Shown in pieces: positions 2,424-43,252 of a stretch of DNA of 64,000 bases. The notes beneath the pieces are model-generated. The model was given only the letters and a program-made list of their open reading frames with translations, made no database searches and was not told where the DNA came from. Location: assembly GCF_058153355.1 (NCBI RefSeq), contig NZ_CM177019.1, one strand, 5' to 3'. Every line of letters starts with the position of its first letter. Position 1 is the stretch's first letter. The position numbers and the translations under genes are program-made.

Positions 2424-2498
2424 GTAAGCGTCTTATCAGGACCGTCTGGCAAATTCCCGATGCTTTGGACAAAGTATCCACCACTAAATTAATAGTGG

Positions 2499-2927
2499 GT
2501 GATAAAAATGTCAGATATACAAAAAAATGCCTCTCCGGGAAGGCCTAAAGGGTGCCTGAATTATCCTCCTGAATTCAAACAACGACTCATAGAAGCATCA
2601 TTCCAGCCAGGTGTTTCAATTTCCAGACTGGCCCTGGACAATGGTATTAATGCCAATCTGTTGTTCAAATGGCGTCAGAAATGGCGGCAGGGGAAGATAA
2701 AATTGCCATCATCAGAATCAGGCAGAGAATCTCAGTTAATTCCTGTCACTATTGATGCCCAACTCCCAACTGCTCCGGCTAATGAGCCACTGACCGCAAG
2801 ACCGTCAGTAACACCGGAAATACACAGCATCTCCTGTGAGATTACGTTCAGAAACGGCACCCTTCGGTTGAACGGGGCAGTGAATGAAAATCTGCTGTCC
2901 TTGCTTATACAGGAGCTGAGACGGTGA
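2499..2927 (+). CDS. IS66-family accessory protein TnpA (orf1, 142 aa)
   Basis: First ORF of the element, small helix-turn-helix-like protein; stop overlaps the next ORF start (ATGA). Confidence 0.85.
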   Translation: MIKMSDIQKNASPGRPKGCLNYPPEFKQRLIEASFQPGVSISRLALDNGINANLLFKWRQKWRQGKIKLPSSESGRESQLIPVTIDAQLPTAPANEPLTARPSVTPEIHSISCEITFRNGTLRLNGAVNENLLSLLIQELRR

Positions 2928-3271
2928 TATCTCTCCCTGCAGGTTCGCGTATCTGGCTGGTTGCAGGTATCACCGATATGCGAAATGGCTTTAACGGCCT
3001 GGCCTCAAAAGTTCAGAACGTCCTGAAGGATGACCCGTTCTCCGGGCATCTGTTCATCTTCCGCGGACGCCGGGGTGACCAGATAAAAGTGTTGTGGGCT
3101 GACAGTGACGGACTGTGCCTCTTCACCAGACGCCTGGAGCGGGGCCGCTTCGTCTGGCCGGTCACCCGTGACGGCAAGGTGCACCTTACTCCGGCCCAGT
3201 TATCCATGCTTCTTGAGGGCATCGACTGGAAACACCCGAAACGAACGGAACGCGCTGGCATCCGCATATAA
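2924..3271 (+). CDS. IS66-family TnpB (orf2, 115 aa)
   Basis: Second ORF, translationally coupled to orf1, size and position typical of IS66 orf2. Confidence 0.85.
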   Translation: MISLPAGSRIWLVAGITDMRNGFNGLASKVQNVLKDDPFSGHLFIFRGRRGDQIKVLWADSDGLCLFTRRLERGRFVWPVTRDGKVHLTPAQLSMLLEGIDWKHPKRTERAGIRI

Positions 3272-3290
3272 CCCGTTGTAAAGTGAGGAT

Positions 3291-4862
3291 ATGGACACCT
3301 CACTTGCTCATGAGAATGCCCGCCTGCGGGCACTGTTGCAGACGCAACAGGACACCATCCGCCAGATGGCGAAATACAACCGCCTGCTCTCACAGCGGGT
3401 GGCGGCTTATGCTTCCGAAATCAACCGGCTGAAGGCGCTGGTTGCAAAACTGCAGCGCATGCAGTTCGGTAAAAGCTCAGAAAAACTTCGTGCAAAAACC
3501 GAACGGCAGATACAGGAAGCACAGGAGCGAATCAGCGCTCTTCAGGAAGAAATGGCGGAAACGCTGGGTGAGCAATATGACCCGGTACTGCCATCTCCCC
3601 TGCGCCAGTCTTCAGCCCGTAAACCGTTACCTGCCTCACTTCCCCGTGAAACCCGGGTCATCCGTCCGGAAGAGGAATGCTGCCCGGCCTGTGGTGGCGA
3701 ACTCAGTTCTCTGGGATGTGATGTGTCAGAGCAACTGGAGCTTATCAGCAGCGCCTTTAAGGTTATCGAAACACAACGTCCGAAACTGGCCTGTTGCCGG
3801 TGCGACCATATCGTGCAGGCTCCGGTGCCTTCAAAACCCATTGCACGCAGTTATGCCGGAGCGGGGCTTCTGGCCCATGTTGTCGCTGGAAAATATGCAG
3901 ACCATCTGCCGTTATACCGCCAGTCAGAAATATACCGTCGTCAGGGCGTGGAGCTGAGCCGTGCCACACTGGGGCGCTGGACAGGTGCTGTTGCTGAACT
4001 GCTGGAACCGCTGTATGACATCCTGCGCCAGTATGTGCTGATGCCCGGTAAAGTCCATGCCGATGATATCCCCGTTCCGGTCCAGGAGCCGGGCAGCGGT
4101 AAAACAAGGACTGCCCGGCTGTGGGTCTACGTTCGTGATGACCGTAACGCCGGTTCGGAAATGCCTCCGGCGGTCTGGTTCGCGTACAGCCCGGACCGGA
4201 AAGGTATCCATCCACAGAATCATCTGGCCGGTTACAGCGGAGTGCTTCAGGCCGATGCTTACGGTGGTTACCGGGCGTTGTACGAATCCGGCAGAATAAC
4301 GGAAGCCGCATGTATGGCTCATGCCCGGAGAAAAATCCACGATGTGCATGCAAGAGTGCCCACCGACATCACCACGGAAGCCCTGCAGCGTATCGGTGAA
4401 CTGTATGCCATCGAGGCAGAGGTCCGGGGCTGTTCAGCAGAACAGCGTCTGGCGGCAAGAAAAGCCAGAGCCGCGCCACTGATGCAGTCACTGTATGACT
4501 GGATACAGCAACAGATGAAAACACTGTCGCGTCACTCGGACACGGCAAAAGCGTTCGCATACCTGCTGAAACAGTGGGATGCACTGAACGTGTACTGCAG
4601 TAATGGCTGGGTGGAAATCGACAACAACATCGCAGAGAACGCCTTACGGGGAGTGGCCGTAGGCCGGAAAAACTGGCTCTTCGCGGGTTCTGACAGCGGT
4701 GGTGAACATGCTGCGGTGTTGTACTCGCTGATCGGCACATGCCGTCTGAACAATGTGGAGCCAGAAAAGTGGCTGCGTTACGTCATTGAACATATCCAGG
4801 ACTGGCCGGCAAACCGGGTACGCGATCTGTTGCCCTGGAAAGTTGATCTGAGCTCTCAGTAA
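3291..4862 (+). CDS. IS66-family transposase TnpC (orf3, 523 aa)
   Basis: Long ORF with N-terminal coiled-coil/leucine-zipper-like segment, CxxC...CxxC zinc-finger-like motif and DDE-type core, typical of IS66 transposases. Confidence 0.88.
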
Positions 4863-4892
4863 ATATCAATACGGTTCTGGCGAGCCGCTTAC

Positions 4893-9131: not shown

Positions 9132-10472
9132 ATGTTATTTACTATCCAACTTATCATAATACTGATATGTCTGTTTTATGGTGCCAGAAAGGGCGGTATC
9201 GCGCTGGGTTTATTAGGCGGTATCGGCCTGGTCATTCTGGTCTTCGTCTTCCACCTTCAGCCAGGTAAACCACCGGTTGATGTCATGCTGGTTATCATTG
9301 CGGTGGTGGCGGCCTCGGCGACCTTGCAAGCTTCGGGCGGTCTTGATGTCATGCTGCAAATTGCCGAGAAGCTGCTGCGCCGCAATCCGAAATATGTCTC
9401 CATTGTCGCACCGTTTGTAACCTGCACGCTGACCATTCTTTGCGGTACGGGCCACGTGGTTTACACCATTCTGCCGATCATCTACGACGTTGCTATTAAG
9501 AACAACATCCGTCCGGAACGTCCGATGGCGGCAAGTTCTATCGGTGCACAGATGGGGATTATCGCAAGCCCAGTGTCGGTTGCGGTCGTATCTCTGGTTG
9601 CGATGCTGGGTAATGTCACCTTTGATGGTCGCCATCTTGAGTTCCTCGACCTGCTGGCAATCACCATTCCATCGACGTTAATCGGTATCCTGGCGATCGG
9701 TATCTTCAGTTGGTTCCGCGGTAAAGATCTGGATAAAGATGAAGAGTTCCAGAAATTCATCTCCGTACCGGAAAACCGTGAGTATGTTTACGGTGATACC
9801 GCGACGCTGCTGGATAAAAAACTGCCGAAAAGCAACTGGCTGGCAATGTGGATCTTCCTCGGGGCAATCGCTGTAGTTGCACTTCTTGGTGCTGATTCGG
9901 ACCTGCGTCCATCCTTCGGTGGCAAACCGCTGTCGATGGTACTGGTTATTCAGATGTTTATGCTGCTAACCGGGGCGCTGATTATTATCCTGACCAAAAC
10001 CAATCCTGCGTCTATCTCAAAAAACGAAGTCTTCCGTTCCGGTATGATCGCCATCGTGGCGGTGTACGGTATCGCATGGATGGCGGAAACCATGTTCGGT
10101 GCGCATATGTCTGAAATTCAGGGCGTACTGGGTGAAATGGTGAAAGAGTATCCGTGGGCCTATGCCATTGTTCTGCTGCTGGTTTCCAAGTTTGTAAACT
10201 CTCAGGCCGCGGCGCTAGCGGCGATTGTTCCGGTCGCGCTGGCGATCGGCGTTGACCCGGCATACATCGTGGCTTCAGCACCGGCTTGCTATGGTTATTA
10301 CATCCTGCCGACTTATCCGAGCGACCTGGCAGCGATTCAGTTTGACCGTTCCGGCACCACCCACATCGGTCGCTTCGTCATCAACCACAGCTTTATTCTG
10401 CCGGGGTTGATTGGTGTGAGCGTATCGTGCGTCTTCGGCTGGATCTTCGCTGCGATGTACGGGTTCTTATAA
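9132..10472 (+). CDS. dcuB: Anaerobic C4-dicarboxylate antiporter DcuB (446 aa)
   Basis: Polytopic membrane protein; recognised DcuB sequence; upstream of fumB. Confidence 0.93.
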
Positions 10473-10549: not shown

Positions 10550-12196
10550 ATGTCAAACAAACCCTTTATCTACCAGGCACCTTTCCCGATGGGGAAAGAC
10601 AATACCGAATACTATCTACTCACGTCCGATTACGTTAGCGTTGCCGACTTCGACGGCGAAACCATCCTGAAAGTGGAACCAGAAGCCCTGACCTTGCTGG
10701 CGCAGCAAGCCTTCCACGACGCTTCTTTCATGCTCCGCCCGGCACACCAGAAACAGGTCGCGGCTATTCTTCAAGATCCAGAAGCCAGCGAAAACGACAA
10801 GTACGTGGCGCTGCAATTCTTAAGAAACTCAGAAATCGCCGCCAAAGGCGTGCTGCCGACCTGCCAGGACACCGGCACCGCGATCATCGTCGGTAAAAAA
10901 GGTCAGCGCGTGTGGACCGGTGGCGGCGATGAAGAAGCGCTGTCGAAAGGTGTCTATAACACCTATATCGAAGATAACCTACGTTACTCACAAAACGCGC
11001 CGCTGGACATGTACAAAGAGGTCAACACCGGCACGAACCTGCCTGCGCAAATCGACCTGTACGCGGTAGATGGCGACGAATACAAATTCCTCTGCGTCGC
11101 CAAAGGCGGTGGCTCTGCCAATAAAACGTATCTCTACCAGGAAACCAAAGCTTTGCTGACTCCCGGCAAACTGAAAAACTTCCTCGTCGAGAAAATGCGT
11201 ACACTCGGTACTGCAGCCTGCCCGCCGTACCATATCGCGTTTGTGATTGGCGGTACGTCTGCGGAAACCAACCTGAAAACCGTCAAGTTAGCAAGCGCTC
11301 ACTATTACGATGAACTGCCGACCGAAGGGAACGAACATGGTCAGGCGTTCCGCGATGTCCAGCTGGAACAGGAACTGCTGGAAGAGGCCCAGAAACTCGG
11401 CCTTGGCGCGCAGTTTGGCGGTAAATACTTCGCGCACGACATCCGCGTGATCCGTCTGCCACGTCACGGCGCATCCTGCCCGGTAGGTATGGGCGTCTCC
11501 TGCTCCGCTGACCGTAACATTAAAGCGAAAATCAACCGCGAAGGTATCTGGATCGAAAAACTGGAACACAATCCAGGCCAGTACATTCCACAAGAACTGC
11601 GTCAGGCCGGTGAAGGCGAAGCGGTGAAAGTCGACCTTAACCGCCCGATGAAAGAGATCCTCGCCCAGCTTTCGCAATACCCGGTATCCACCCGCTTGTC
11701 GCTCACCGGCACTATTATCGTGGGTCGCGATATTGCACATGCCAAGCTGAAAGAGCTGATTGACGCCGGTAAAGAGCTGCCGCAGTACATCAAAGATCAC
11801 CCGATCTACTACGCGGGTCCGGCGAAAACGCCTGCCGGTTATCCATCAGGTTCACTTGGCCCAACCACCGCAGGTCGTATGGACTCCTACGTGGATCTGC
11901 TGCAATCCCACGGCGGCAGCATGATCATGCTGGCGAAAGGTAACCGCAGTCAGCAGGTTACCGACGCGTGTCATAAACACGGCGGCTTCTACCTCGGTAG
12001 TATCGGCGGCCCGGCGGCGGTACTGGCGCAGCAGAGCATCAAGCATCTGGAATGCGTCGCTTATCCGGAGCTGGGTATGGAAGCTATCTGGAAAATCGAA
12101 GTAGAAGATTTCCCGGCGTTTATCCTGGTCGATGACAAAGGCAACGACTTCTTCCAGCAAATCGTCAACAAACAGTGCGCGAACTGCACTAAGTAA
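10550..12196 (+). CDS. fumB: Class I fumarate hydratase FumB (548 aa)
   Basis: Recognised FumB sequence [31 protein letters not shown]...; Fe-S fumarase family. Confidence 0.93.
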
Positions 12197-12318: not shown

Positions 12319-12969
12319 ATGACCCGCACACTCAAGCCGTTAATTCTTAACACCGGCGCACTGGCGCTAACGTTAATCCTGATTTATACCGGCATTTCGG
12401 CCAATGACAAACTCACCTGGCTGATGGAAGTGACACCGGTGATTATTGTCGTGCCGCTACTGCTTGCCACCGCCAGACGTTACCCGTTAACGCCGCTGCT
12501 CTATACGCTCATTTTCTTTCATGCCATCATCCTGATGGTCGGCGGGCAATACACCTACGCGAAAGTCCCCGTTGGTTTTGAGGTGCAGGAATGGCTGGGG
12601 TTGAGCCGTAATCCGTATGACAAGCTGGGGCATTTTTTCCAGGGGCTGGTGCCTGCACTGGTGGCGCGAGAAATTCTCGTTCGCGGGATGTACGTGCACG
12701 GACGTAAAATGGTGGCGTTTCTGGTCTGCTGCGTGGCGCTGGCGATAAGCGCGATGTATGAATTAATCGAGTGGTGGGCAGCGCTGGCAATGGGTCAGGG
12801 AGCGGATGATTTTCTCGGCACCCAGGGCGACCAGTGGGACACACAATCCGATATGTTCTACGCGCTACTTGGTGCATTAACTACGGTGATATTCCTTGCT
12901 CGCTTTCATTGCCGCCAGCTACGGCGCTATGGCTTAATCACCAGAGCGCCGGAAGCGATTACCTCTTAA
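12319..12969 (+). CDS. yjdF: Inner membrane protein YjdF
   Basis: Hydrophobic ORF in conserved position after fumB; start codon not verified. Confidence 0.8.
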   Translation: MTRTLKPLILNTGALALTLILIYTGISANDKLTWLMEVTPVIIVVPLLLATARRYPLTPLLYTLIFFHAIILMVGGQYTYAKVPVGFEVQEWLGLSRNPYDKLGHFFQGLVPALVAREILVRGMYVHGRKMVAFLVCCVALAISAMYELIEWWAALAMGQGADDFLGTQGDQWDTQSDMFYALLGALTTVIFLARFHCRQLRRYGLITRAPEAITS

Positions 12970-14321
12970 CGGTGTAACCAGCCTGGCAGCCAGTCGCCGT
13001 GGGCGGCAATCAGGTCGTCAACAAGAGCATATATTTCGTCAATGCCCAGCACGGCGGCAGTATGCGGGTCCATCATCGCGGCGTGGTAAACACGGTCGCG
13101 ATTTTCTGTGAGAATGGCTTCCGTCAGCAGTGTCTGTACGTTGATATTGGTTTGCATCAGGGCGGCCAGATGCGAAGGTAGCGTACCGACTTTGGTCGGC
13201 TGAATGCCATTAGCATCAACCAGACAGGCCACTTCCACACAACATCCTTGTGGCAGGTTATCAATCAAACCATCGTTACGGACGTTGCCATAAATCACAC
13301 TCGGCTCGCCAGTCCAGATAGCGTTCATGATTGTGCTGGCATATTCCCGTGACGGTTTAATATCAATCCGGGAGGCGTTCTTATACTCCTCCAGCTCTTT
13401 ATGCCAGTTCGCCAGCTGCTCGACGCAGCGTTTCGGGTACTCATCCAGCGGTACTTTATAACGCTCAATCAAATCCTCACGACCTGGCTTAATAAACCAC
13501 GGTGTGTACTCAGCAAAATGTTCTGACGATTCCGTGACGAAGTAGCCCAGCTTTTTGAACATTTCGTAACGCACAATATTCTGGCAGCGAGTATTACCAT
13601 GAATATTTGGCTTCGGTGCCTGCCCTGCTTCATAAGCCGCCAGCAGTTCCGGGTAGAGATTCACGTAACTGCCGTCGGCGGTTTTGCGCTCCAGTTCCAG
13701 GTAAAACGCCATATGGTTGATACCCGCACAACGGTAACGCAGCGTAGCCGGGTCGATATTGAGGTCACGCGCCAGCTCTTCCGCCGTTCCCTGCACCGAA
13801 TGACACAGCCCTACCTGTTTGATATGCGGATAACGGGCATACATCGCCCAGGTATTCATCGCCATTGGGTTAACATAGTTGAGCATGGTGGCATCGGGGC
13901 AGACTTCCGTCATGTCCTCGCAAATTTGCCACAGGTGAGGAATGGTACGTAGCGCGCGCATAATACCGCCCGGCCCCAGCGTATCGGCAATGGTTTGTTC
14001 CAGACCGTGGCGCTTACAGACCTCGAAATCAGTCACCGTGCAAGGTTCATAACCGCCAATCTGAAATGCCACCACGACAAAATCGGCATCCTGTAAGGCT
14101 TCTTTCTGTTGGGTGTGGCAGGTGATTTTGCCGCTGGCCCCTGCTGAATCCATCAGCTTGCGCACCACAATATGCGACTCTTCCAGGCGGGTGGGATCAA
14201 TGTCCATCAGGGCAATATGCGCCGTTTTCAGCGCCTCGCGATGGAACACATCACCAAGAATATTTTTAACGAAAATCGTCGAACCAGCGCCGATAAATGT
14301 AATTTTGGGTGCAGACATCAT
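12966..14321 (-). CDS. melA: Alpha-galactosidase MelA (451 aa, NAD/Mn-dependent GH4 family)
   Basis: Recognised MelA sequence MMSAPKITFIGAGSTIFVKNILGDVF...; divergent from melR; stop codon overlaps the yjdF stop. Confidence 0.93.
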   Translation of the reverse strand: MMSAPKITFIGAGSTIFVKNILGDVFHREALKTAHIALMDIDPTRLEESHIVVRKLMDSAGASGKITCHTQQKEALQDADFVVVAFQIGGYEPCTVTDFEVCKRHGLEQTIADTLGPGGIMRALRTIPHLWQICEDMTEVCPDATMLNYVNPMAMNTWAMYARYPHIKQVGLCHSVQGTAEELARDLNIDPATLRYRCAGINHMAFYLELERKTADGSYVNLYPELLAAYEAGQAPKPNIHGNTRCQNIVRYEMFKKLGYFVTESSEHFAEYTPWFIKPGREDLIERYKVPLDEYPKRCVEQLANWHKELEEYKNASRIDIKPSREYASTIMNAIWTGEPSVIYGNVRNDGLIDNLPQGCCVEVACLVDANGIQPTKVGTLPSHLAALMQTNINVQTLLTEAILTENRDRVYHAAMMDPHTAAVLGIDEIYALVDDLIAAHGDWLPGWLHR

Positions 14322-14397
14322 GCAGATCTCCTGGCTTGCTTGAATAACTTCATCATGGCAGGCGAATCTGCAGAAAACCTCCGGCTTCCAGGTTGAG

Positions 14398-14454
14398 CAT
14401 TCCCATAAACTCAGATCCTGCGTGAAGTGTCAGTAAATCTGAGTTTATGGGAAT
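14398..14454. promoter_or_regulatory. Inverted pair of MelR operator sequences (cattcccataaactcagat ... atctgagtttatgggaat) in the melR-melA divergent promoter region
   Basis: Two near-identical 18-bp sequences in inverted orientation seen directly; agrees with the known MelR site architecture at the melAB promoter. Confidence 0.6.
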
Positions 14455-14603
14455 AAATTACCTGAAAAGCAGAGTTTTCGGCCTCATGGTACTCGGATGA
14501 TCCCTTCGCCCCTCTGGCAAGAGGGCGAAAACCGTGCTCCCACTCGCAGTCATCCTCCCTCACTCCTGCCATAATTCTGATATTCCAGGAAAGAGAGTCA
14601 TCC

Positions 14604-15512
14604 ATGAATACAGATACGTTTATGTGCAGCAGCGACGAAAAACAGACCCGCAGCCCGCTGTCGCTGTATTCGGAATACCAGCGGATGGAGATTGAGTTTC
14701 GCGCACCGCATATCATGCCCACCAGCCACTGGCATGGTCAGGTCGAAGTGAATGTGCCTTTCGATGGCGATGTGGAATACCTGATCAACAATGAAAAAGT
14801 GAGTATCAATCAGGGACATATCACGCTGTTCTGGGCCTGTACACCGCACCAACTAACAGATACCGGAACCTGTCAGAGCATGGCGATTTTTAATCTGCCG
14901 ATGCATCTGTTTCTCTCCTGGCCGCTGGATAAAGACCTGATTAACCACGTCACTCACGGCATGGTGATCAAATCACTGGCGACACAGCAACTTAGCCCGT
15001 TTGAAGTGCGCCGCTGGCAGCAGGAATTGAACAGTCCGAACGAGCAAATTCGCCAGCTCGCCATTGATGAAATTGGCCTGATGCTCAAGCGATTTAGCCT
15101 CTCTGGCTGGGAACCGATTCTGGTCAATAAAACCTCGCGCACACACAAAAACAGCGTCTCGCGCCATGCGCAATTTTATGTCAGCCAGATGCTGGGCTTT
15201 ATTGCCGAAAACTATGATCAGGCGCTGACCATCAACGATGTGGCTGAGCACGTCAAACTTAACGCCAACTATGCAATGGGGATATTCCAGCGGGTCATGC
15301 AATTGACGATGAAACAGTACATTACTGCGATGCGCATCAACCACGTTCGTGCGTTACTGAGCGATACCGATAAAAGTATTCTCGATATTGCCCTGACGGC
15401 AGGCTTTCGTTCGAGTAGCCGTTTTTACAGCACGTTCGGCAAATATGTCGGCATGTCACCGCAACAATACCGCAAACTTAGCCAACAGCGCCGCCAGACG
15501 TTTCCCGGCTAA
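14604..15512 (+). CDS. melR: AraC-family melibiose operon activator MelR (302 aa)
   Basis: Recognised sequence MNTDTFMCSSDEKQTRSPLSLYSEY...; C-terminal AraC-type helix-turn-helix. Confidence 0.93.
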   Translation: MNTDTFMCSSDEKQTRSPLSLYSEYQRMEIEFRAPHIMPTSHWHGQVEVNVPFDGDVEYLINNEKVSINQGHITLFWACTPHQLTDTGTCQSMAIFNLPMHLFLSWPLDKDLINHVTHGMVIKSLATQQLSPFEVRRWQQELNSPNEQIRQLAIDEIGLMLKRFSLSGWEPILVNKTSRTHKNSVSRHAQFYVSQMLGFIAENYDQALTINDVAEHVKLNANYAMGIFQRVMQLTMKQYITAMRINHVRALLSDTDKSILDIALTAGFRSSSRFYSTFGKYVGMSPQQYRKLSQQRRQTFPG

Positions 15513-15710
15513 AGACGATATCAGTATCAGCCAAAAAAATAGTTTAGCCGTCGATAATAAGCAGTGAAAATAAATCAAAATAATCACATAACATATTGTT
15601 TATAAAAATGAATATTTAAAAAATGTTTGTTTTTCATGCGCTTTACAGCCCGAAAAGGCCGGAAGATACTTGCCCGCAACGAAGATTCCTTCATAACCGG
15701 GTAAGCAATG

Positions 15711-17978
15711 ATGAAAGTATTAATTGTTGAAAGCGAGTTTCTCCATCAGGACACCTGGGTCGGTAACGCCGTTGAGCGTCTGGCAGATGCTTTAAGCCAG
15801 CAAAATGTTACCGTGATTAAATCCACCTCCTTTGATGATGGCTTTGCCATTCTCTCTTCAAACGAAGCCATTGACTGCCTGATGTTCAGCTATCAAATGG
15901 AACATCCGGACGAACATCAAAACGTCAGACAATTGATCGGTAAGCTTCATGAGCGCCAACAAAACGTGCCGGTCTTCCTGTTGGGCGATCGGGAAAAAGC
16001 CCTCGCCGCAATAGACCGAGATCTGCTGGAGCTTGTCGATGAATTCGCCTGGATTCTGGAAGATACCGCCGACTTTATCGCCGGACGCGCCGTTGCCGCA
16101 ATGACCCGCTACCGCCAGCAGCTGTTGCCGCCACTGTTCAGCGCGCTGATGAAATATAGCGACATCCATGAATATTCCTGGGCAGCGCCAGGCCACCAGG
16201 GCGGCGTTGGCTTTACCAAAACACCCGCCGGACGTTTCTACCATGACTACTATGGTGAAAATCTGTTCCGCACCGACATGGGCATCGAACGGACTTCCCT
16301 CGGTTCTTTGCTTGACCATACTGGCGCATTTGGCGAAAGCGAAAAATATGCCGCACGCGTATTTGGTGCCGATCGCTCCTGGTCGGTAGTCGTCGGTACT
16401 TCCGGCTCTAACCGTACCATCATGCAGGCTTGCATGACCGATAACGATGTAGTGGTCGTTGACCGTAACTGCCATAAATCCATCGAACAAGGCTTGATGC
16501 TGACAGGCGCGAAACCGGTCTACATGGTGCCAAGCCGCAACCGCTACGGCATTATCGGGCCAATTTATCCGCAGGAAATGCAACCTGAAACCTTGCAGAA
16601 GAAAATCAGTGAAAGCCCGCTGACCAAAGACAAAGCCGGGCAAAAACCGTCTTACTGCGTGGTAACCAACTGCACCTATGACGGCGTGTGTTATAACGCT
16701 AAAGAAGCGCAGGATCTGCTGGAAAAAACTTCCGATCGTCTGCACTTTGACGAAGCCTGGTACGGCTATGCACGTTTCAACCCGATCTATGCCGATCACT
16801 ATGCCATGCGCGGTGAACCTGGCGATCACAACGGTCCTACCGTTTTCGCCACCCACTCAACCCACAAACTGCTGAATGCGCTGTCACAGGCCTCTTACAT
16901 TCATGTGCGTGAAGGTCGTGGGGCGATTAACTTCTCCCGCTTCAACCAGGCATACATGATGCATGCCACCACCTCCCCGCTGTATGCCATCTGTGCATCT
17001 AACGACGTGGCGGTGTCGATGATGGACGGCAACAGCGGCCTGTCACTGACCCAGGAAGTGATCGACGAAGCGGTTGATTTCCGTCAAGCGATGGCACGGC
17101 TGTATAAAGAGTTCACCCATGACGGTAGCTGGTTCTTCAAACCGTGGAACAAAGAAGTGGTCACCGATCCACAAACCGGCAAAACCTACGACTTTGCTGA
17201 CGCGCCAACCAAACTGCTGACCACCGTTCAGGACTGCTGGGTAATGCATCCGGGCGAAAGCTGGCACGGCTTCAAAGATATTCCGGATAACTGGAGTATG
17301 CTCGACCCAATTAAAGTCAGCATTCTCGCACCAGGAATGGGTGAAGATGGTGAACTGGAAGAAACCGGTGTTCCGGCGGCGCTGGTCACTGCCTGGCTTG
17401 GTCGCCACGGCATTGTGCCTACCCGCACCACTGACTTCCAAATTATGTTCCTGTTCTCTATGGGCGTAACCCGTGGGAAATGGGGAACTCTGGTTAACAC
17501 CCTTTGCTCCTTCAAACGCCACTACGACGCCAACACACCGCTGGCGCAGGTGATGCCGGAACTTGTTGAACAATATCCTGACACTTACGCGAATATGGGG
17601 ATTCACGATCTGGGTGACACCATGTTTGCCTGGCTAAAAGAAAATAACCCTGGCGCACGGTTGAACGAAGCCTATTCCGGCCTGCCGGTGGCGGAAATCA
17701 CCCCGCGTGAAGCGTACAACGCAATTGTCGATAACAATGTCGAACTGGTATCCATTGAAAATCTGCCTGGACGCATCGCGGCAAACTCAGTTATCCCGTA
17801 TCCGCCAGGAATCCCGATGCTACTGTCTGGTGAAAACTTCGGCGATAAAAACAGTCCACAGGTAAGTTATTTACGCTCCCTGCAATCCTGGGACCATCAT
17901 TTCCCTGGATTTGAACACGAAACTGAAGGGACTGAAATTATTGACGGTATTTACCACGTCATGTGTGTGAAAGCGTAA
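15711..17978 (+). CDS. adiA: Biodegradative (acid-inducible) arginine decarboxylase AdiA (755 aa)
   Basis: Recognised PLP-dependent decarboxylase sequence; the ORF has tandem ATGs at 15708 and 15711 and the second is chosen. Confidence 0.93.
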   Translation: MKVLIVESEFLHQDTWVGNAVERLADALSQQNVTVIKSTSFDDGFAILSSNEAIDCLMFSYQMEHPDEHQNVRQLIGKLHERQQNVPVFLLGDREKALAAIDRDLLELVDEFAWILEDTADFIAGRAVAAMTRYRQQLLPPLFSALMKYSDIHEYSWAAPGHQGGVGFTKTPAGRFYHDYYGENLFRTDMGIERTSLGSLLDHTGAFGESEKYAARVFGADRSWSVVVGTSGSNRTIMQACMTDNDVVVVDRNCHKSIEQGLMLTGAKPVYMVPSRNRYGIIGPIYPQEMQPETLQKKISESPLTKDKAGQKPSYCVVTNCTYDGVCYNAKEAQDLLEKTSDRLHFDEAWYGYARFNPIYADHYAMRGEPGDHNGPTVFATHSTHKLLNALSQASYIHVREGRGAINFSRFNQAYMMHATTSPLYAICASNDVAVSMMDGNSGLSLTQEVIDEAVDFRQAMARLYKEFTHDGSWFFKPWNKEVVTDPQTGKTYDFADAPTKLLTTVQDCWVMHPGESWHGFKDIPDNWSMLDPIKVSILAPGMGEDGELEETGVPAALVTAWLGRHGIVPTRTTDFQIMFLFSMGVTRGKWGTLVNTLCSFKRHYDANTPLAQVMPELVEQYPDTYANMGIHDLGDTMFAWLKENNPGARLNEAYSGLPVAEITPREAYNAIVDNNVELVSIENLPGRIAANSVIPYPPGIPMLLSGENFGDKNSPQVSYLRSLQSWDHHFPGFEHETEGTEIIDGIYHVMCVKA

Positions 17979-22958: not shown

Positions 22959-24050
22959 ATGCGTTTTCTGCGCCGACCAATATCGCTGCGCCAACGGCTG
23001 ATATTGACCATCGGGGCCATTTTGTTGGTGTTTGAGCTGATCAGCGTCTTCTGGCTATGGCATGAAAGTACCGAGCAGATTCAGCTGTTTGAGCAGGCGC
23101 TACGCGACAATCGTAACAACGATCGCCACATCATGCGTGAGATCCGCGAGGCGGTCGCCAGCCTGATTGTCCCTGGCGTCTTTATGGTCAGCCTGACGCT
23201 ATTTATCTGCTATCAGGCGGTACGCCGCATCACCCGCCCGCTGGCGGAGCTGCAAAAAGAGCTGGAAGCGCGCACCGCCGACAACTTAACGCCCATTGCC
23301 ATTCACAGCGCCACCCTCGAAATCGAAGCGGTGGTTTCAGCGTTAAACGATCTGGTCAGTCGCCTGACCAACACGCTGGATAACGAAAGGTTGTTTACCG
23401 CTGACGTCGCGCACGAACTGCGAACGCCACTGGCGGGGGTGCGTTTGCATCTGGAACTGCTGGCGAAAACGCATCACATTGATGTAGCACCGTTAGTGGC
23501 ACGACTTGATCAGATGATGGAGAGTGTCTCCCAGCTACTGCAACTGGCGCGTGCCGGACAGTCATTTTCTTCCGGTAATTATCAACATGTAAAACTGCTG
23601 GAAGATGTCATTCTCCCCTCGTATGACGAACTCAGTACCATGCTCGACCAGCGCCAGCAAACCCTGCTATTGCCAGAGAGCGCCGCCGACATCACCGTTC
23701 AGGGTGATGCAACCCTGCTGCGGATGTTATTGCGAAACCTGGTAGAAAACGCCCATCGTTACAGCCCGCAAGGCAGCAACATTATGATTAAGCTGCAAGA
23801 CGATGGCGGAGCGGTCATGGCCGTTGAAGATGAAGGGCCGGGTATTGATGAGAGTAAATGTGGAGAGTTGAGTAAAGCGTTTGTACGAATGGACAGCCGT
23901 TATGGCGGGATTGGTCTGGGGTTAAGTATTGTCAGCCGCATTACACAGTTGCATCACGGGCAGTTTTTCCTGCAAAACCGGCAAGAGACTTCTGGCACAC
24001 GGGCCTGGATACGGCTGAAAAAAGATCAGTACGTGGCAAACCAGATATAA
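22959..24050 (+). CDS. basS: Sensor histidine kinase BasS (PmrB), 363 aa
   Basis: Recognised sequence M(R)FLRRPISLRQRLILTIGAILLVFELISVFW...; ATG at 22959 chosen over the in-frame TTG at 22950. Confidence 0.9.
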   Translation: MRFLRRPISLRQRLILTIGAILLVFELISVFWLWHESTEQIQLFEQALRDNRNNDRHIMREIREAVASLIVPGVFMVSLTLFICYQAVRRITRPLAELQKELEARTADNLTPIAIHSATLEIEAVVSALNDLVSRLTNTLDNERLFTADVAHELRTPLAGVRLHLELLAKTHHIDVAPLVARLDQMMESVSQLLQLARAGQSFSSGNYQHVKLLEDVILPSYDELSTMLDQRQQTLLLPESAADITVQGDATLLRMLLRNLVENAHRYSPQGSNIMIKLQDDGGAVMAVEDEGPGIDESKCGELSKAFVRMDSRYGGIGLGLSIVSRITQLHHGQFFLQNRQETSGTRAWIRLKKDQYVANQI

Positions 24051-24115
24051 AGAAAGCTGCTGACCACCAGCACGCTGAACACGGTAGTTAAACTTTCATA
24101 AACACGGTTTTTCAT
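24026..24115 (-). CDS. pmrR: Small membrane protein PmrR (29 aa, MKNRVYESLTTVFSVLVVSSFLYIWFATY), antisense to the last codons of basS
   Basis: Short minus-strand ORF translated by hand (below the ORF-track length cutoff); GGAGGAGAG Shine-Dalgarno upstream; PmrA box further upstream. Confidence 0.7.
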   Translation of the reverse strand: MKNRVYESLTTVFSVLVVSSFLYIWFATY

Positions 24116-24159
24116 TGCACTCTCCTCCGTTAACCTGGAGGAGAGTATGCGCGTCAGAG

Positions 24160-24176
24160 ATTAAGTGAACCTTAAG
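24160..24176 (-). promoter_or_regulatory. PmrA box-like repeat (minus strand CTTAAG-GTTCA-CTTAAT) upstream of pmrR
   Basis: Hexamer direct repeat with 5-bp spacer seen on the minus strand about 45 nt upstream of the pmrR start. Confidence 0.5.
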
Positions 24177-24226
24177 AGTTCAATTGGCCTAATAAGACAG
24201 CGTCACATCAGGCCATCCGTTTCAGC

Positions 24227-29867: not shown

Positions 29868-31170
<1,303 letters not shown>

Positions 31171-31200
31171 CATGCCTGCAATCTGGGAAACCGGGGTAGA

Positions 31201-31289
<89 letters not shown>

Positions 31290-31352
31290 CCCGCTCATCT
31301 GTATAATTTTCGAACTACACTTAACTGGCTTCTCTTAACTGAGGTCACCATC

Positions 31353-31796
31353 ATGCCGTTAAGTCCCTACCTCTCTTTTGCCGGTAACTGTTCCGACGCG
31401 ATTGCCTATTATCAACGTACGTTGGGCGCGGAACTGCTCTATAAAATCAGCTTCGGCGAAATGCCGAAATCAGCGCAGGACAGCGCCGAGAACTGCCCTT
31501 CCGGTATGCAATTTCCCGATACCGCTATCGCCCATGCTAACGTGCGTATTGCCGGAAGCGATATCATGATGAGCGATGCCATACCGTCAGGAAAAGCCAG
31601 CTACTCCGGTTTTACACTGGTACTCGATTCGCAACAGGTCGAAGAAGGAAAACGCTGGTTTGACAACCTTGCCGCTAACGGAAAAATCGAAATGGCCTGG
31701 CAGGAAACTTTCTGGGCGCATGGCTTCGGCAAAGTCACCGATAAATTTGGCGTACCGTGGATGATTAATGTCGTCAAACAACAACCAACGCACTAA
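31353..31796 (+). CDS. yjdN: PhnB-like/glyoxalase-fold protein YjdN (147 aa)
   Basis: Translation MPLSPYLSFAGNCSDAIAYYQRTLGAELL... Confidence 0.88.
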   Translation: MPLSPYLSFAGNCSDAIAYYQRTLGAELLYKISFGEMPKSAQDSAENCPSGMQFPDTAIAHANVRIAGSDIMMSDAIPSGKASYSGFTLVLDSQQVEEGKRWFDNLAANGKIEMAWQETFWAHGFGKVTDKFGVPWMINVVKQQPTH

Positions 31797-31928
31797 CCCG
31801 CCGGGAGGCCCGCCCTCCCGCACTGTCATCGAATTCCCGTTAACTCTTCATCTGTTAGTCACTTTTAGTTAACAAAATCGTCACGATAATCCGCCACGAT
31901 GGAGCCACTTTTTTAGGGAGGCTGCATC

Positions 31929-32717
31929 ATGCAAACGATTATCCGTGTCGAGAAGCTCGCCAAAACCTTCAATCAGCATCAGGCGCTGCACGCGGTTGAT
32001 TTGAACATTCATCACGGTGAAATGGTGGCTCTGCTTGGGCCGTCGGGTTCCGGCAAATCCACCCTTTTACGTCATTTAAGCGGTTTGATTACCGGCGATA
32101 AATCTGCCGGTAGCCATATCGAGCTGCTGGGCCGCACAGTCCAGCGCGAAGGCCGCCTGGCCCGCGATATCCGCAAAAGCCGCGCCAACACCGGCTACAT
32201 CTTCCAACAATTCAACCTGGTGAATCGCCTGAGCGTACTGGAGAACGTGCTGATTGGCGCGCTCGGCAGCACGCCATTCTGGCGCACCTGTTTTAGCTGG
32301 TTCACCCGCGAGCAGAAACAGCGCGCGTTACAGGCGCTGACCCGCGTTGGCATGGTGCACTTTGCCCATCAGCGCGTTTCCACCCTCTCCGGCGGGCAAC
32401 AGCAGCGTGTGGCGATTGCCCGCGCGCTGATGCAGCAGGCGAAGGTGATTCTGGCCGATGAACCCATCGCCTCGCTGGACCCGGAATCGGCGCGCATCGT
32501 GATGGACACCCTGCGCGACATTAACCAGAACGACGGCATTACCGTGGTCGTCACGCTGCATCAGGTGGATTACGCCCTGCGCTATTGCGAACGCATCGTC
32601 GCCCTGCGTCAGGGGCACGTCTTTTACGACGGCAGCAGCCAACAGTTTGATAACGAACGTTTTGACCATCTCTACCGCAGCATTAATCGCATCGAAGAGA
32701 ACGCGAAAGCTGCCTGA
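31929..32717 (+). CDS. phnC: Phosphonate ABC transporter ATP-binding protein PhnC
   Basis: Walker [13 protein letters not shown] signature LSGGQQQR; first gene of the phn operon. Confidence 0.93.
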
Positions 32718-32741
32718 CATCCCCATCATTGAGGAAAACGA

Positions 32742-33758
32742 ATGAACGCTAAGATAATTGCCTCGCTGGCCTTCACCAGCATGTTCAGCCTCAGCACCCT
32801 GTTAAGTCCGGCGCACGCCGAAGAGCAGGAAAAGGCGCTGAATTTCGGCATTATTTCAACGGAATCACAGCAAAACCTGAAACCGCAATGGACGCCGTTC
32901 TTACAGGATATGGAGAAGAAGCTGGGCGTAAAGGTCAACGCCTTCTTTGCCCCGGACTACGCGGGCATTATCCAGGGGATGCGCTTCAATAAAGTGGATA
33001 TCGCCTGGTACGGCAATCTATCGGCGATGGAAGCGGTGGATCGCGCCAACGGTCAGGTCTTCGCCCAGACGGTCGCGGCGGATGGATCGCCGGGTTACTG
33101 GAGCGTGTTGATCGTCAACAAAGACAGTCCGATCAACAACCTGAACGATCTGCTGGCGAAGCGTAAAGATCTCACCTTTGGCAATGGCGATCCTAACTCC
33201 ACCTCTGGCTTCCTCGTCCCCGGCTACTACGTCTTCGCCAAAAACAATATCTCCGCCAGCGACTTCAAGCGCACCGTCAACGCCGGGCATGAAACCAACG
33301 CGCTGGCCGTCGCCAACAAGCAGGTGGATGTGGCGACCAACAACACCGAGAACCTCGACAAGCTGAAAACCTCCGCACCGGAGAAGCTCAAAGAACTGAA
33401 GGTGATCTGGAAATCGCCGCTGATCCCAGGCGATCCGATCGTCTGGCGCAAAAATCTTTCCGAAACCACCAAAGACAAGATCTACGACTTCTTTATGAAC
33501 TACGGCAAAACGCCGGAAGAGAAAGCGGTGCTGGAGCGCCTGGGCTGGGCCCCGTTCCGCGCCTCCAGCGACCTGCAACTGGTGCCGATTCGCCAGCTCG
33601 CGCTGTTTAAAGAGATGCAGGGCGTGAAAGGCAATAAAGGGCTGAATGAGCAGGACAAGCTGGCAAAAACCAGCGCCATTCAGGCGCAACTGGATGACCT
33701 GGACCGCCTGAACAACGCGTTAAGCGCGATGAGTTCGGTGAGTAAAGCGGTGCAGTAA
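32742..33758 (+). CDS. phnD: Phosphonate ABC transporter periplasmic binding protein PhnD
   Basis: Signal peptide plus binding-protein fold; recognised sequence. Confidence 0.93.
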   Translation: MNAKIIASLAFTSMFSLSTLLSPAHAEEQEKALNFGIISTESQQNLKPQWTPFLQDMEKKLGVKVNAFFAPDYAGIIQGMRFNKVDIAWYGNLSAMEAVDRANGQVFAQTVAADGSPGYWSVLIVNKDSPINNLNDLLAKRKDLTFGNGDPNSTSGFLVPGYYVFAKNNISASDFKRTVNAGHETNALAVANKQVDVATNNTENLDKLKTSAPEKLKELKVIWKSPLIPGDPIVWRKNLSETTKDKIYDFFMNYGKTPEEKAVLERLGWAPFRASSDLQLVPIRQLALFKEMQGVKGNKGLNEQDKLAKTSAIQAQLDDLDRLNNALSAMSSVSKAVQ

Positions 33759-33772
33759 TGTGCTCGATCGGT

Positions 33773-33862
33773 CCCCTCTCCCTTGAGGGAGAGGGTTAGG
33801 GTGAGGGGGGAAATACGCACGCTGATGCCCTCACCCCGGCCCTCTCCCACAGGGAGAGGGAG
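33773..33862. repeat. GC-rich compound palindromic intergenic element between phnD and phnE
   Basis: Nested inverted repeats ccctctccc/gggagaggg (twice) flanking ttagggtgagggg...gccctcacccc. Confidence 0.7.
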
Positions 33863-33884
33863 AAAACATTAAACGGAGCCAAAC

Positions 33885-34664
33885 ATGCAAACCATCACCA
33901 TCGCCCCACCCAAGCGCAGCTGGTTCTCGCTTCTGAGCTGGGCCATTGTTCTCGCCGTGCTGGTCGTCTCGTGGCAGGGCGCGGAAATGGCCCCGCTCAC
34001 GCTGATTAAAGACGGCGGCAACATGGCGACGTTCGCCGCCGACTTCTTCCCGCCCGATTTCAGCCAGTGGCAGGATTACCTCACCGAAATGGCCGTCACG
34101 CTGCAAATCGCCGTCTGGGGCACCGCGCTGGCAGTCGTTCTCTCCATCCCCTTCGGCCTGATGAGCGCCGAAAACCTGGTGCCGTGGTGGGTGTACCAGC
34201 CCGTGCGCCGTCTGATGGACGCCTGCCGCGCCATTAACGAAATGGTCTTCGCCATGCTGTTCGTGGTCGCCGTCGGTCTCGGGCCGTTCGCTGGCGTGCT
34301 GGCGCTGTTTATTCACACCACCGGCGTGCTTTCCAAACTGCTTTCCGAAGCGGTGGAAGCGATTGAACCCGGCCCGGTGGAAGGTATTCGCGCCACTGGT
34401 GCCAACAAGCTCGAAGAGATCCTCTACGGCGTGCTGCCGCAGGTGATGCCGCTGCTGATCTCCTACTCCCTCTATCGCTTCGAATCCAACGTCCGTTCGG
34501 CCACCGTTGTTGGCATGGTCGGCGCTGGCGGGATCGGCGTCACGCTGTGGGAAGCGATTCGCGGTTTCCAGTTCCAGCAAACCTGCGCCCTGATGGTGCT
34601 GATTATCGTCACGGTCAGCCTGCTGGATTTCCTCTCTCAACGGTTGCGTAAGCACTTTATCTGA
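33885..34664 (+). CDS. phnE: Phosphonate ABC transporter permease PhnE, intact (259 aa)
   Basis: Single uninterrupted ORF with permease features. Confidence 0.9.
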
Positions 34665-34684
34665 TAAGCGAGGCATTGATATCT

Positions 34685-35410
34685 ATGCACTTGTCTACAC
34701 ATCCGACCAGCTACCCAACACGCTATCAGGAGATAGCCGCAAAACTTGAGCAGGAGCTTCGTCAACACTACCGCTGCGGCGACTATCTTCCCGCCGAGCA
34801 GCAACTGGCAGCGCGCTTTGAGGTGAATCGCCACACCCTGCGCCGTGCCATCGACCAACTGGTGGAAAAAGGCTGGGTACAGCGCCGTCAGGGCGTCGGC
34901 GTGCTGGTGCTGATGCGCCCGTTCGATTACCCGCTCAACGCTCAGGCGCGTTTTAGCCAGAACCTGCTGGATCAGGGTAGCCATCCCACCAGCGAAAAAC
35001 TGCTGTCCGTGCTGCGCCCGGCCTCCGGTCACGTCGCTGACGCGCTGGGGATAACCGAGGGCGAGAACGTTATCCACCTGCGCACCCTGCGCCGGGTCAA
35101 CGGCGTCGCGCTCTGTTTAATCGACCACTACTTTGCGGACCTCACCCTCTGGCCGACGCTGCAACGCTTCGACAGCGGCTCGCTGCACGATTTTCTGCGT
35201 GAGCAAACGGGGATTGCGCTGCGCCGCAGCCAGACGCGGATCAGCGCCCGCCGCGCCCAGGCCAAAGAGTGCCAGCGTCTTGAAATCCCGAATATGTCGC
35301 CGCTGCTGTGCGTGCGCACCCTTAACCACCGTGACGGTGAAAGCAGCCCGGCGGAGTACTCCGTCAGCCTGACGCGCGCCGACATGATTGAATTCACTAT
35401 GGAGCACTGA
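34685..35410 (+). CDS. phnF: GntR-family repressor PhnF (241 aa)
   Basis: N-terminal winged HTH, UTRA-like C-terminal domain; start at MHLSTHPTSYPTRYQEIAAKLE. Confidence 0.9.
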   Translation: MHLSTHPTSYPTRYQEIAAKLEQELRQHYRCGDYLPAEQQLAARFEVNRHTLRRAIDQLVEKGWVQRRQGVGVLVLMRPFDYPLNAQARFSQNLLDQGSHPTSEKLLSVLRPASGHVADALGITEGENVIHLRTLRRVNGVALCLIDHYFADLTLWPTLQRFDSGSLHDFLREQTGIALRRSQTRISARRAQAKECQRLEIPNMSPLLCVRTLNHRDGESSPAEYSVSLTRADMIEFTMEH

Positions 35411-35863
35411 ATGCACGCAGATACCGCGACCCGCCAGCACTGGATGTCCGTGCTGGCGCACAGCCAACCGGCTGAACTGGCTAACCGCCTTAAAGCGCTA
35501 AACATCACCGCCGACTATGACATTATCCGCGCCGCCGAAACCGGCCTGGTACAGATTCAGGCGCGGATGGGTGGCACCGGCGAACGCTTTTTTGCCGGCG
35601 ACGCCACGCTCACCCGCGCCGCCATACGCCTGACTGACGGCACGCTCGGCTACAGCTGGGTGCTGGGGCGCGACAAACAGCACGCCGAACGCTGCGCGCT
35701 GATTGACGCGCTGATGCAGCAATCTCGCCACTTTCAAAACTTATCAGAAACCCTTATTGCCCCGCTGGACGCTGACCGTATGGCACGCATTGCCGCACGC
35801 CAGGCCGAAGTGAACGCCAGTCGGGTCGACTTCTTTACGATGGTTCGCGGAGACAACGCATGA
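35411..35863 (+). CDS. phnG: C-P lyase core complex subunit PhnG
   Basis: Recognised sequence; operon position. Confidence 0.92.
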
Positions 35864-36444
35864 CCCTGGAAACCGCTTTTATGCTTCCCGTGCAGGATGC
35901 CCAGCACAGTTTTCGTCGCCTGTTAAAGGCCATGAGCGAGCCGGGCGTGATTGTCGCCCTACATCAACTCAAACGCGGCTGGCAGCCGCTGAATATTGCC
36001 TCTACCAGCGTATTGCTGACGCTGGCTGATAACGACACGCCGGTGTGGCTTTCCGCGCCATTAAGTAACGATATCGTCAGCCAGAGCCTGCGTTTTCATA
36101 CCAACGCCCCGCTGGTCAATCAGCCGGAACAGGCGACCTTCGCAGTGACGGATGAGGCGATTGCCAGCGAGCAGCTCAACGCCCTTTCCACCGGCACCGC
36201 CGTTGCGCCGGAAGCCGGTGCGACGTTGATTTTACAGGTCACCAGCCTGAGCGGCGGACGCATGCTGCGCCTCACCGGCGCGGGTATTGCCGAAGAACGG
36301 ATGATCGCCCCGCAACTGCCGGAGTGCATTCTGCACGAACTCACCGAGCGCCCGCACCCGTTCCCGCTCGGCATCGACCTGATCCTGACCTGCGGCGAGC
36401 GCCTGCTGGCTATTCCGCGAACCACTCATGTGGAGGTGTGCTGA
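35860..36444 (+). CDS. phnH: C-P lyase core complex subunit PhnH
   Basis: Recognised sequence; overlaps neighbours by 4/1 nt. Confidence 0.92.
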
Positions 36445-37508
36445 TGTACGTTGCCGTGAAAGGGGGCGAGAAGGCGATCGACGCCGCCCACGCCCTGCAA
36501 GAGAGCCGACGCCGGGGCGATACCGATTTGCCTGAACTGAGCGTCGCCCAGATTGAACAGCAGCTTAATCTCGCGGTGGATCGCGTGATGACCGAAGGCG
36601 GCATTGCCGACCGCGAACTGGCCGCACTGGCGCTGAAACAGGCCAGTGGCGATAACGTTGAAGCAATTTTCCTGCTGCGCGCCTACCGCACGACGCTGGC
36701 AAAACTGGCGGTAAGCGAGCCGCTCGACACCACCGGGATGCGTCTCGAACGCCGTATCTCCGCCGTTTATAAAGACATTCCTGGCGGCCAGCTGCTTGGC
36801 CCGACCTACGACTACACCCATCGCCTGCTGGATTTCACCCTGCTGGCGAATGGCGAAGCGCCGACGCTGACCACCGCCGACAGCGAGCAAGCCCCATCGC
36901 CGCACGTTTTCAGCCTGCTGGCGCGTCAGGGGCTGGCGAAGTTTGAAGAGGATAGCGGCGCACAGCCGGATGACATCACCCGTACACCGCCGGTTTACCC
37001 TTGCTCTCGCGCCTCCCGCCTGCAACAGCTCATGCGCGGCGACGAAGGCTACTTGCTGGCGCTGGCCTACTCCACCCAGCGCGGATATGGTCGCAATCAC
37101 CCCTTCGCAGGTGAAATCCGCAGCGGCTATATCGACGTGTCGATTGTGCCAGAAGAGCTGGGATTTTCAGTAAACGTCGGCGAACTGCTGATGACCGAGT
37201 GTGAAATGGTCAACGGTTTTATCGACCCGCCGGATGAGCCGCCGCACTTCACGCGCGGCTACGGGCTGGTGTTCGGCATGAGCGAGCGCAAAGCGATGGC
37301 AATGGCGCTGGTTGACCGTGCGTTGCAGGCTCCGGAGTACGGCGAGCACGCGACAGGCCCGGCGCAGGATGAAGAGTTCGTGCTGGCGCATGCCGACAAC
37401 GTCGAAGCCGCAGGCTTTGTCTCGCACCTCAAACTCCCGCACTACGTCGATTTCCAGGCCGAGCTGGAGCTACTCAAACGTCTGCAACAGGAGCAGAACC
37501 ATGGCTAA
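36444..37508 (+). CDS. phnI: C-P lyase subunit PhnI (354 aa)
   Basis: Start [19 protein letters not shown] chosen inside the longer ORF at the phnH stop overlap. Confidence 0.92.
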   Translation: MYVAVKGGEKAIDAAHALQESRRRGDTDLPELSVAQIEQQLNLAVDRVMTEGGIADRELAALALKQASGDNVEAIFLLRAYRTTLAKLAVSEPLDTTGMRLERRISAVYKDIPGGQLLGPTYDYTHRLLDFTLLANGEAPTLTTADSEQAPSPHVFSLLARQGLAKFEEDSGAQPDDITRTPPVYPCSRASRLQQLMRGDEGYLLALAYSTQRGYGRNHPFAGEIRSGYIDVSIVPEELGFSVNVGELLMTECEMVNGFIDPPDEPPHFTRGYGLVFGMSERKAMAMALVDRALQAPEYGEHATGPAQDEEFVLAHADNVEAAGFVSHLKLPHYVDFQAELELLKRLQQEQNHG

Positions 37509-39101: not shown

Positions 39102-39104
39102 GCC

Positions 39105-39252
39105 GGTGCCGGATGCGGCGTAAACGCCTTATCCGGCTTTTCAGGCCGCAACGCCTGATGGCGCTTCGCTTATCAGGCCTACAAAACCATCGTAATACGT
39201 TGATATTGATTCATTTGTAGGCCGGATAAGGCGCAGCCGCCATCCGGCAAAA
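39105..39252. repeat. REP/BIME cluster between phnK and phnL
   Basis: Several REP units (gccggatgcggcgtaaacgccttatccggc; gcctgatggcgcttcgcttatcaggcctac; tgtaggccggataaggcgcagccgccatccggca); contains an ATCAGGCCTAC 11-mer at about 39172-39182. Confidence 0.85.
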
Positions 39253-39268
39253 ACACGAAGAGGCCAAA

Positions 39269-42060: not shown

Positions 42061-42061
42061 C

Positions 42062-42820: not shown

Positions 42821-42854
42821 TGGGTGAGGGGCGATGCCTGCTCTAAACTCAACA

Positions 42855-43184: not shown

Positions 43185-43252
43185 TAGCCAACCTCAAAAA
43201 GAAACTCTATCCACATTAGTCATTACTCATCCATGCAAGTAGTGGATGAATC

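Follow-up and report, generated by a model that had tools for sequence, protein, structure and literature searches.

Does the clean abutment of melA and yjdF in this DNA record a natural deletion, or does it betray a misassembled or engineered sequence? In the 64-kb stretch analysed here (the window), these two convergent genes end in overlapping stop codons, and the permease gene melB expected downstream of melA is missing. The sequence across the yjdF/melA junction at 12940–12972 is ACCAGAGCGCCGGAAGCGATTACCTCTTAACGG. yjdF, which encodes a DUF2238 inner-membrane protein, is a plus-strand open reading frame of 216 residues (12319–12969), and melA, which encodes a GH4 alpha-galactosidase of 451 residues, is intact on the minus strand (12966–14321). 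The convergent stops form a TTAA at 12966–12969: the minus-strand TAA of melA, read as TTA on the plus strand, occupies 12966–12968 and the plus-strand TAA of yjdF occupies 12967–12969. The stop codons have 2 nt in common (12967–12968) and the open reading frames overlap by 4 nt. As this is an exact structural feature, the question of chance does not arise. A preliminary description of the window had given the same coordinates and the same 2-nt overlap, which proved exact, and its statement that melB is absent holds as well, since a tblastn search with K-12 MelB as query (E ≤ 1e-3) returned no MelB homologue in the 64-kb window. At the same position K-12 has the 1422-bp melB gene, flanked by a 102-nt melA–melB spacer and a 138-nt, REP-bearing melB–yjdF spacer.

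The genes around the junction are in good order. melR (14604–15512, plus strand) is an intact open reading frame for an AraC-family activator of 302 residues (NCBIfam NF007693, 635 bits) with 99.7% amino acid identity to K-12, and the melA product (NF011657, 736 bits) is 99.6% identical to K-12 MelA over its full length. dcuB (9132–10472), fumB (10550–12196) and adiA (15708–17978) are also intact, and the family assignments of dcuB, fumB, yjdF, melA, melR and adiA were confirmed by NCBIfam. The divergent melA–melR regulatory region (14322–14603) is 96.5% identical to K-12 and contains the inverted motifs TTCCCATAAACTCAGATCC (14400–14418) and ATCTGAGTTTATGGGAA (14437–14453), which we take, from what is known of the mel promoter, to be putative MelR operator sites. 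Both motifs are invariant in six Escherichia (the window, K-12, Nissle, EC42405, E. whittamii, and E1V33), and the earlier reading of melA, melR, and their intergenic region as intact is borne out. The window thus resembles the canonical melR–melAB system of K-12 and Salmonella in its divergent melR, operator-like motifs, intact MelA and dcuB–fumB–yjdF ... melR–adiA context, but it is without the MFS_2 symporter gene melB, its leader, and the downstream REP region. Of the parts that make up a complete melR–melAB regulon, the divergent melR and melA are present, and melB directly 3′ of melA is the one that is missing.

We found that this junction is common. Among 5426 complete RefSeq E. coli genomes, 1264 match a 300-bp probe centred on it (12818–13117) without a break. 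In the remaining genomes the probe is split, the melA half matching from the exact melA stop and the yjdF half matching to ~12942. K-12 melB was found in 4136 of the 5426 genomes, and the junction genomes and melB genomes add up to 5400. The two sets are nearly complementary, which is consistent with mutual exclusion across E. coli. The junction is carried, among others, by the Nissle 1917 derivative SYNB1934 and H105, both of phylogroup B2, an O166:H15 strain with K-12-like flanks, and EC42405, the best match to the window. The melB-less junction is an ordinary natural allele present in about a quarter of sequenced E. coli. The preliminary description had considered a junction of this kind unusual for a natural deletion, a view that the genome counts contradict. 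It had also granted that its reading would fall if yjdF directly abutted melA as the common arrangement in relatives, and that is the state we found, since the same junction is common in related genomes, both in E. coli and in other Escherichia species. The tidy stop-to-stop junction is the normal state of the locus in a large share of Escherichia, and as such it is no flag for engineering or misassembly.

That melB can be lost was already known. Its loss from phylogroup B2 was reported by Gonzalez-Alba et al. (2019, PMC6896753), and we found little literature on melB loss at this locus beyond that study, which reports gene loss only, without the junction or the presence of the allele outside B2. 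What we describe is a known, ordinary gene-content polymorphism, refined here at the level of the junction. What may be new in print is the description of the junction itself, together with the finding of the allele in cryptic clades and of selection acting on melA and melR. For typing the deletion allele, ACCAGAGCGCCGGAAGCGATTAC provides a precise junction marker.

The lineage of the window is indicated by its closest relatives. It is 99.1–99.3% identical to EC42405, a bovine isolate, over 10–25 kb; identity is ~97.7% over 25 kb to the best other E. coli and 97.2–97.9% to K-12. EC42405 and 2013C-4282, the latter also among the top matches, are listed as cryptic clade I strains (PMC10100065). 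Because of its 99% identity to EC42405, a clade I strain, we assign the window on sequence grounds to the Escherichia cryptic clade I lineage (E. coli sensu lato). The B2 genomes SYNB1934 and H105 have the same locus and junction, with overlapping stops and a homologous filler between the two genes, but the window differs from them in several respects: it belongs with clade I, its melA–melR region is K-12-like whereas that of B2 is only 84–86% identical, and its yjdF is intact whereas that of the Nissle derivative is frameshifted.

The two sides of the junction and the filler between them reveal the anatomy of the deletion. Homology of yjdF to K-12 breaks after 12942. Codons 1–208 (12319–12942) are native, and NCBIfam NF007369 matches YjdF residues 1–208 of its 209-position profile. 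K-12 YjdF has 209 residues and ends in ...RRFGLITG*; in the window, codon 209 to the stop (12943–12969) is a fusion tail, RAPEAITS*, created by the deletion and read from the antisense of a spacer remnant. The question raised earlier, whether the YjdF C-terminus is native or a fusion product, is thereby answered in favor of a fusion. The corresponding tail is RAPEAITP in B2 and in the O166:H15 strain, and RAPEA[I/T]TP in the cryptic species. In the window yjdF antisense is joined at TCTG, where K-12 yjdF has TCCG (codon 209, GGA).

The 20-nt filler GCGCCGGAAGCGATTACCTC (12946–12965) is what is left of the ancestral melA–melB spacer at its melA-proximal end. Read in the melA sense, the K-12 spacer is TAA-AACGCGAC-TAAACGC-TACTGCGCCGGGGGATTTA-TTCCGGCG-CACAC-CTCTG-ACG..., and the window is TAA-GAGG-TAATCGC-TTCCGGCG-CTCTG-GTGATTAAGCC.... 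Global alignment of the filler with the K-12 spacer, carried out alongside a comparison of the melA–melB spacers of 11 melB+ taxa, pairs TAA..TAA[A/T]CGC, opens a 19-nt gap that corresponds to the 5′ arm and loop of the post-melA hairpin, and resumes at TTCCGGCG..CTCTG. The filler retains the beginning of the spacer together with the 3′ arm of that hairpin (CCGGCGC, melA sense). We also considered an origin of the filler from the REP of the K-12 yjdF–melB spacer and rejected it, as the alignment is poorer than that to the melA–melB spacer.

The alignment shows that an illegitimate deletion of ~1.6 kb took out most of the melA–melB spacer and all of melB, together with the REP-bearing melB–yjdF spacer; yjdF lost its stop and its final sense codon. 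The crossover is at a TC[T/C]G microhomology in yjdF codon 209. A further 19 nt, the 5′ arm of the former post-melA hairpin and its loop, are missing as well, in a two-step reconstruction that depends on the alignment of very short, diverged sequence. The product is the 20-nt spacer remnant, through which yjdF reads for eight codons until it reaches a TAA overlapping that of melA.

The allele extends beyond E. coli. In a scan with MelA of one genome per GTDB species, 80 loci were kept and then searched by tblastn with MelB, YjdF, MelR, and FumB. melA converges on yjdF without melB in E. whittamii, 'E. coli' SCPM-O-B-8794, and Escherichia sp. E1V33. In all three, the distance from YjdF codon 208 to the melA stop is 23 nt, as in the window, and each aligns with the window as a single 11-kb HSP across the junction at 91.7–92.9% identity; flank identity of E. 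whittamii and the two other Escherichia genomospecies is 92–94%. Their junctions are homologous, with the pattern GCGCCGGAAGC[G/A]A[T/C]TAC[C/A][T/C]CTTA[A/G]. B2, clade I, and all three species have homologous fillers, and both breakpoints (yjdF codon 209 and the melA stop) match, together with the filler, among Nissle, H105, O166:H15, EC42405, E. whittamii, SCPM-O-B-8794, and E1V33. All melB-less Escherichia examined keep the stop overlap, in the form TTAA or TTAG; the base that varies, the fourth, is the synonymous third position of the last Arg codon of melA. Because junction-proximal divergence matches that of the flanks, the deletion allele must be old and of a single origin. A recent cross-species transfer of the allele was considered and rejected, as junction-proximal identity between species (88–92%) is at the locus-wide level.

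melB is kept in Escherichia sp. MOD1-EC7003, most Citrobacter, Salmonella, Kluyvera, Cedecea, Buttiauxella, and Vibrionaceae. Five species of the Citrobacter youngae group resemble the window in keeping melR–melA without melB, such that melA and yjdF converge directly; they differ from it in having the native yjdF stop and a ~65-nt spacer with a REP-like palindrome. This melB loss is a separate event, because the junction differs from that of the Escherichia allele. Another natural loss that also affects melibiose fermentation is the mel deletion of O80:H2 (Bizot et al. 2022). As that work is related in PMC9962692, the whole mel operon is gone there and a 70-bp insertion, '70mel', is present, whereas the loss in the window is confined to melB and spares melR and melA.

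The explanation that we favor, and hold to be very probable, is that the mel locus of the window, from clade I, bears a deletion allele that is natural and ancient, that the allele has a single origin, that melR–melA remains under selection, and that another carrier presumably serves for alpha-galactosides. The alternative that survives best concerns the polarity of the change. Comparison across genera shows melB+ to be ancestral for Enterobacteriaceae. The melB-less junction may nevertheless be ancestral to E. coli and the cryptic clades, with melB regained by homologous recombination outside B2, or the two states may form a trans-species polymorphism; we regard this as possible but rather unlikely. 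In its favor, the non-coli Escherichia with melA in the species-representative scan are all melB-less except MOD1-EC7003, whose MelB is 100% identical to that of K-12. The deletion is also present in clade I and in B2, which branch most basally among lineages at the E. coli level, and melB-less clades surround the melB+ phylogroups on the species tree. Among melB+ E. coli, melB is also slightly less diverse than melA, with at least 99% identity to K-12 in 4127 of the 4136 genomes, and melA ranges down to ~98.4%.

Several observations speak against a regain of melB. The MelB/MelA divergence ratio is 2.4–3.4 for K-12 versus Citrobacter, Salmonella, and Kluyvera, and 2.0–4.3 in comparisons without E. 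coli. This ratio is normal and is what vertical descent would give, and melB must therefore have stayed within an Escherichia-level lineage throughout. On the same normal ratios we rejected the idea that E. coli had recently acquired melB from Citrobacter, Salmonella, or Kluyvera. Moreover, the K-12 flanks are E. coli-like up to the breakpoints, without a divergent import tract, and no donor species is known. The deletion allele also lies on a K-12-like background in the O166:H15 strain, evidence that the allele moves by recombination; the locus offers a small, clean case of how indel alleles move between Escherichia lineages in this way. Recombination is visible in the flanks as well, where E1V33 is 98–100% identical to K-12 in fumB and 91–92% in melA. 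Flank phylogeny is uninformative on polarity because the identity profile is mosaic. No MelA locus of E. albertii or E. fergusonii was among the 80 loci kept in the species scan; E. albertii is reported to be melibiose-negative.

Two scenarios come into question: the E. coli stem may have retained melB while recombination spread the deletion allele, or an early deletion may have been followed by regain. Only tentatively do we suggest that melB presence or absence is an ancient Escherichia polymorphism, kept or repeatedly exchanged across species, or that the deletion is ancestral to E. coli and the cryptic clades and melB was regained by the non-B2 phylogroups; in either case selection would have maintained melR–melA for a role independent of MelB, through a synonymous divergence of ~0.4.

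It is highly improbable that melB was deleted recently, in this strain or in clade I alone. Among the sequences compared, only EC42405 has the window's own filler variant (…TACCTC TTAA, tail ...ITS), but the breakpoints and a homologous filler occur also in B2, O166:H15, E. whittamii, SCPM-O-B-8794, and E1V33, and the fillers differ by substitutions that keep pace with the divergence of the species (flank dS up to 0.45). The suggestion of a lineage-specific event in the preliminary description was broadly right in kind, but the breakpoints common to B2, O166:H15, and other species argue against an event confined to the strain or to clade I.

Assembly error and engineering, both raised earlier, are effectively excluded, because the exact junction recurs in five independent assemblies and the allele has a natural spread. 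Deliberate construction of a melA+ ΔmelB strain, such as DW2 or a lambda-Red knockout, is brought to mind by the tidy stop-to-stop junction and by the existence of such laboratory strains (DW2; PMC10374971), but it has a negligible chance of being correct: the background is not that of a laboratory strain (~97.5% identity to K-12 near the locus versus 99% to EC42405), the junction has no FRT, loxP, cassette, or vector scar and only the 20-nt native spacer remnant, and the same junction is found in the 1264 natural isolates of E. coli, in E. whittamii and in two other genomospecies with matching divergence. DW2 itself (melA+ ΔmelB ΔlacZY, a transport host) is melA+ melB− as is the window (PMC10374971); it is, however, a K-12 derivative made in the laboratory, whereas the window is natural, ~2.5% diverged from K-12, and has a junction found in wild isolates. 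A collapse or mis-join that dropped melB during assembly, for which only the unusual look of the overlapping stops speaks, is scarcely credible given 1264 complete, mostly long-read genomes with the junction, five independent assemblies or sequencing runs that share the exact 216-residue YjdF, the gene order and the 35-nt junction string of the window (a string also found in EC42405), two intact reading frames, and no flanking repeats able to cause a collapse.

What remains of the mel system after the deletion is not decaying. Among melB-less lineages (dS 0.13–0.45), dN/dS is 0.010–0.026 for melA and 0.013–0.042 for melR, comparable to the 0.004–0.022 of the comparison gene fumB; for yjdF it is 0.06–0.09. 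melA and melR are kept by purifying selection in melB-less lineages, because dN/dS among these lineages is 0.01–0.04. A sugar hydrolase and its regulator thus stay under strong selection long after the dedicated permease is gone. MelR and melA remain as a selected module of regulator plus enzyme without the Na+/melibiose symporter.

How the substrate then enters the cell can be considered from work on other carriers. LacY also transports melibiose (PMC4308713), and in the K-12 strain DW2 melibiose fermentation is abolished only when both melB and lacY are inactive (PMC10374971). Melibiose uptake without MelB presumably proceeds via LacY or another carrier, and for alpha-galactosides at large LacY would be the most plausible route; the lacY gene itself lies outside the window. 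The selection seen on melA and melR lends this possible use of melibiose without MelB indirect support. The preliminary description was probably correct that MelB-mediated uptake is lost; a loss of all melibiose uptake does not follow, since LacY carries this sugar. Published phenotypes are in keeping with a pathway that has been weakened: melibiose-positive strains make up 75% of E. coli (PMC11546641), and E. ruysiae isolates are melibiose-negative by API 20E (PMC11997573). The melB-less allele probably accounts for much of the 75% figure, and the E. ruysiae results hint that uptake in the absence of MelB may be poor.

The deletion also changed the sequence that follows melA in its transcript. 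An inverted repeat, CGGCGCTATGG / CCAGAGCGCCG, spans the yjdF 3′ end and the filler (12922–12932 and 12941–12951), with 11-nt arms that are 91% complementary and an 8-nt loop, such that the retained filler arm now pairs with yjdF coding sequence. A pattern scan found no canonical intrinsic terminator at the junction; the only terminator-like match, at 13082–13100 (plus strand), lies inside melA, and the count is below the shuffle expectation. On the melA transcript the hairpin lies 15 nt past the stop, without a U-run. Having lost the old terminator, melA transcripts would run past this newly formed hairpin into antisense yjdF. RNA folding of the minus strand gives −31.3 kcal/mol (z = −2.1), and the E. 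whittamii homologue reaches z = −4.0. We infer a putative role for this hairpin in melA 3′-end formation, through termination or transcript stability. K-12 has an analogous post-melA hairpin, formed from different partner arms.

The arrangement of melR and melA without a neighbouring melB was also found outside Escherichia, at loci of the Citrobacter youngae group (L012, L020, L026, L027 and L068 in the scan for MelA across one genome per GTDB species) and of Raoultella and the Klebsiella oxytoca group (L040–L045). The C. youngae group junction to yjdF differs from the Escherichia junction and contains REP sequence. The loci of Raoultella and of the K. oxytoca group have a different genomic context, and there melA is followed by a DnaJ-domain ORF that we judged, from its N-terminal sequence, to be cbpA-like.

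Among the melB-less Escherichia strains, H105, the O166:H15 strain and clade I have an intact yjdF (216 aa); the annotation of the Nissle derivative SYNB1934 gives the gene as a pseudogene with a frameshift (L003 3002–3644). The two B2 strains, SYNB1934 and H105, share a divergent melA–melR intergenic region (L003 4997–5278, also in the H105 locus L091; homologous to window 14322–14603) with just 79–88% identity to each of the other Escherichia compared; the flanking genes of the same loci are 97–99% identical. Both motifs resembling MelR sites are kept in this B2 region despite its divergence.

Comparison with the clade I strain EC42405 revealed two insertions in the window. The first, 2469 bp at 2424–4892, is an IS66-type element with three ORFs (2499–2927, 2924–3271 and 3291–4862), the last of which encodes a 523-aa IS66-family transposase (NF033517, 479 bits). 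Its flanks overlap by 8 bp, which suggests a target-site duplication within or adjoining ghoT. The second, 1278 bp at 29949–31226, contains an ORF (30141–31121) whose 326-aa product is an RNA-guided transposase of the IS110 family (NF033542, 253 bits). This insertion directly adjoins a match to the REP-derived naRNA4 in Rfam (29871–29947), and thus has the appearance of an IS621-like bridge-RNA element that has entered a REP. Identity to EC42405 falls from 99.3% at 4893–29948 to 97.6% at 31227–50585, a tract that covers the phn, yjcS and mdtNOP region, and this fall suggests a recombination boundary close to the IS110 insertion.

Further Rfam matches in the window include the sRNA STnc630 downstream of pmrB (24019–24184, minus strand) and a SECIS_2 element (51466–51520, plus strand) immediately upstream of an ORF at 51522–53201, which is probably the post-UGA part of fdhF. 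Two more copies of the REP-derived naRNA4 lie at 53989–54172 on the minus strand.
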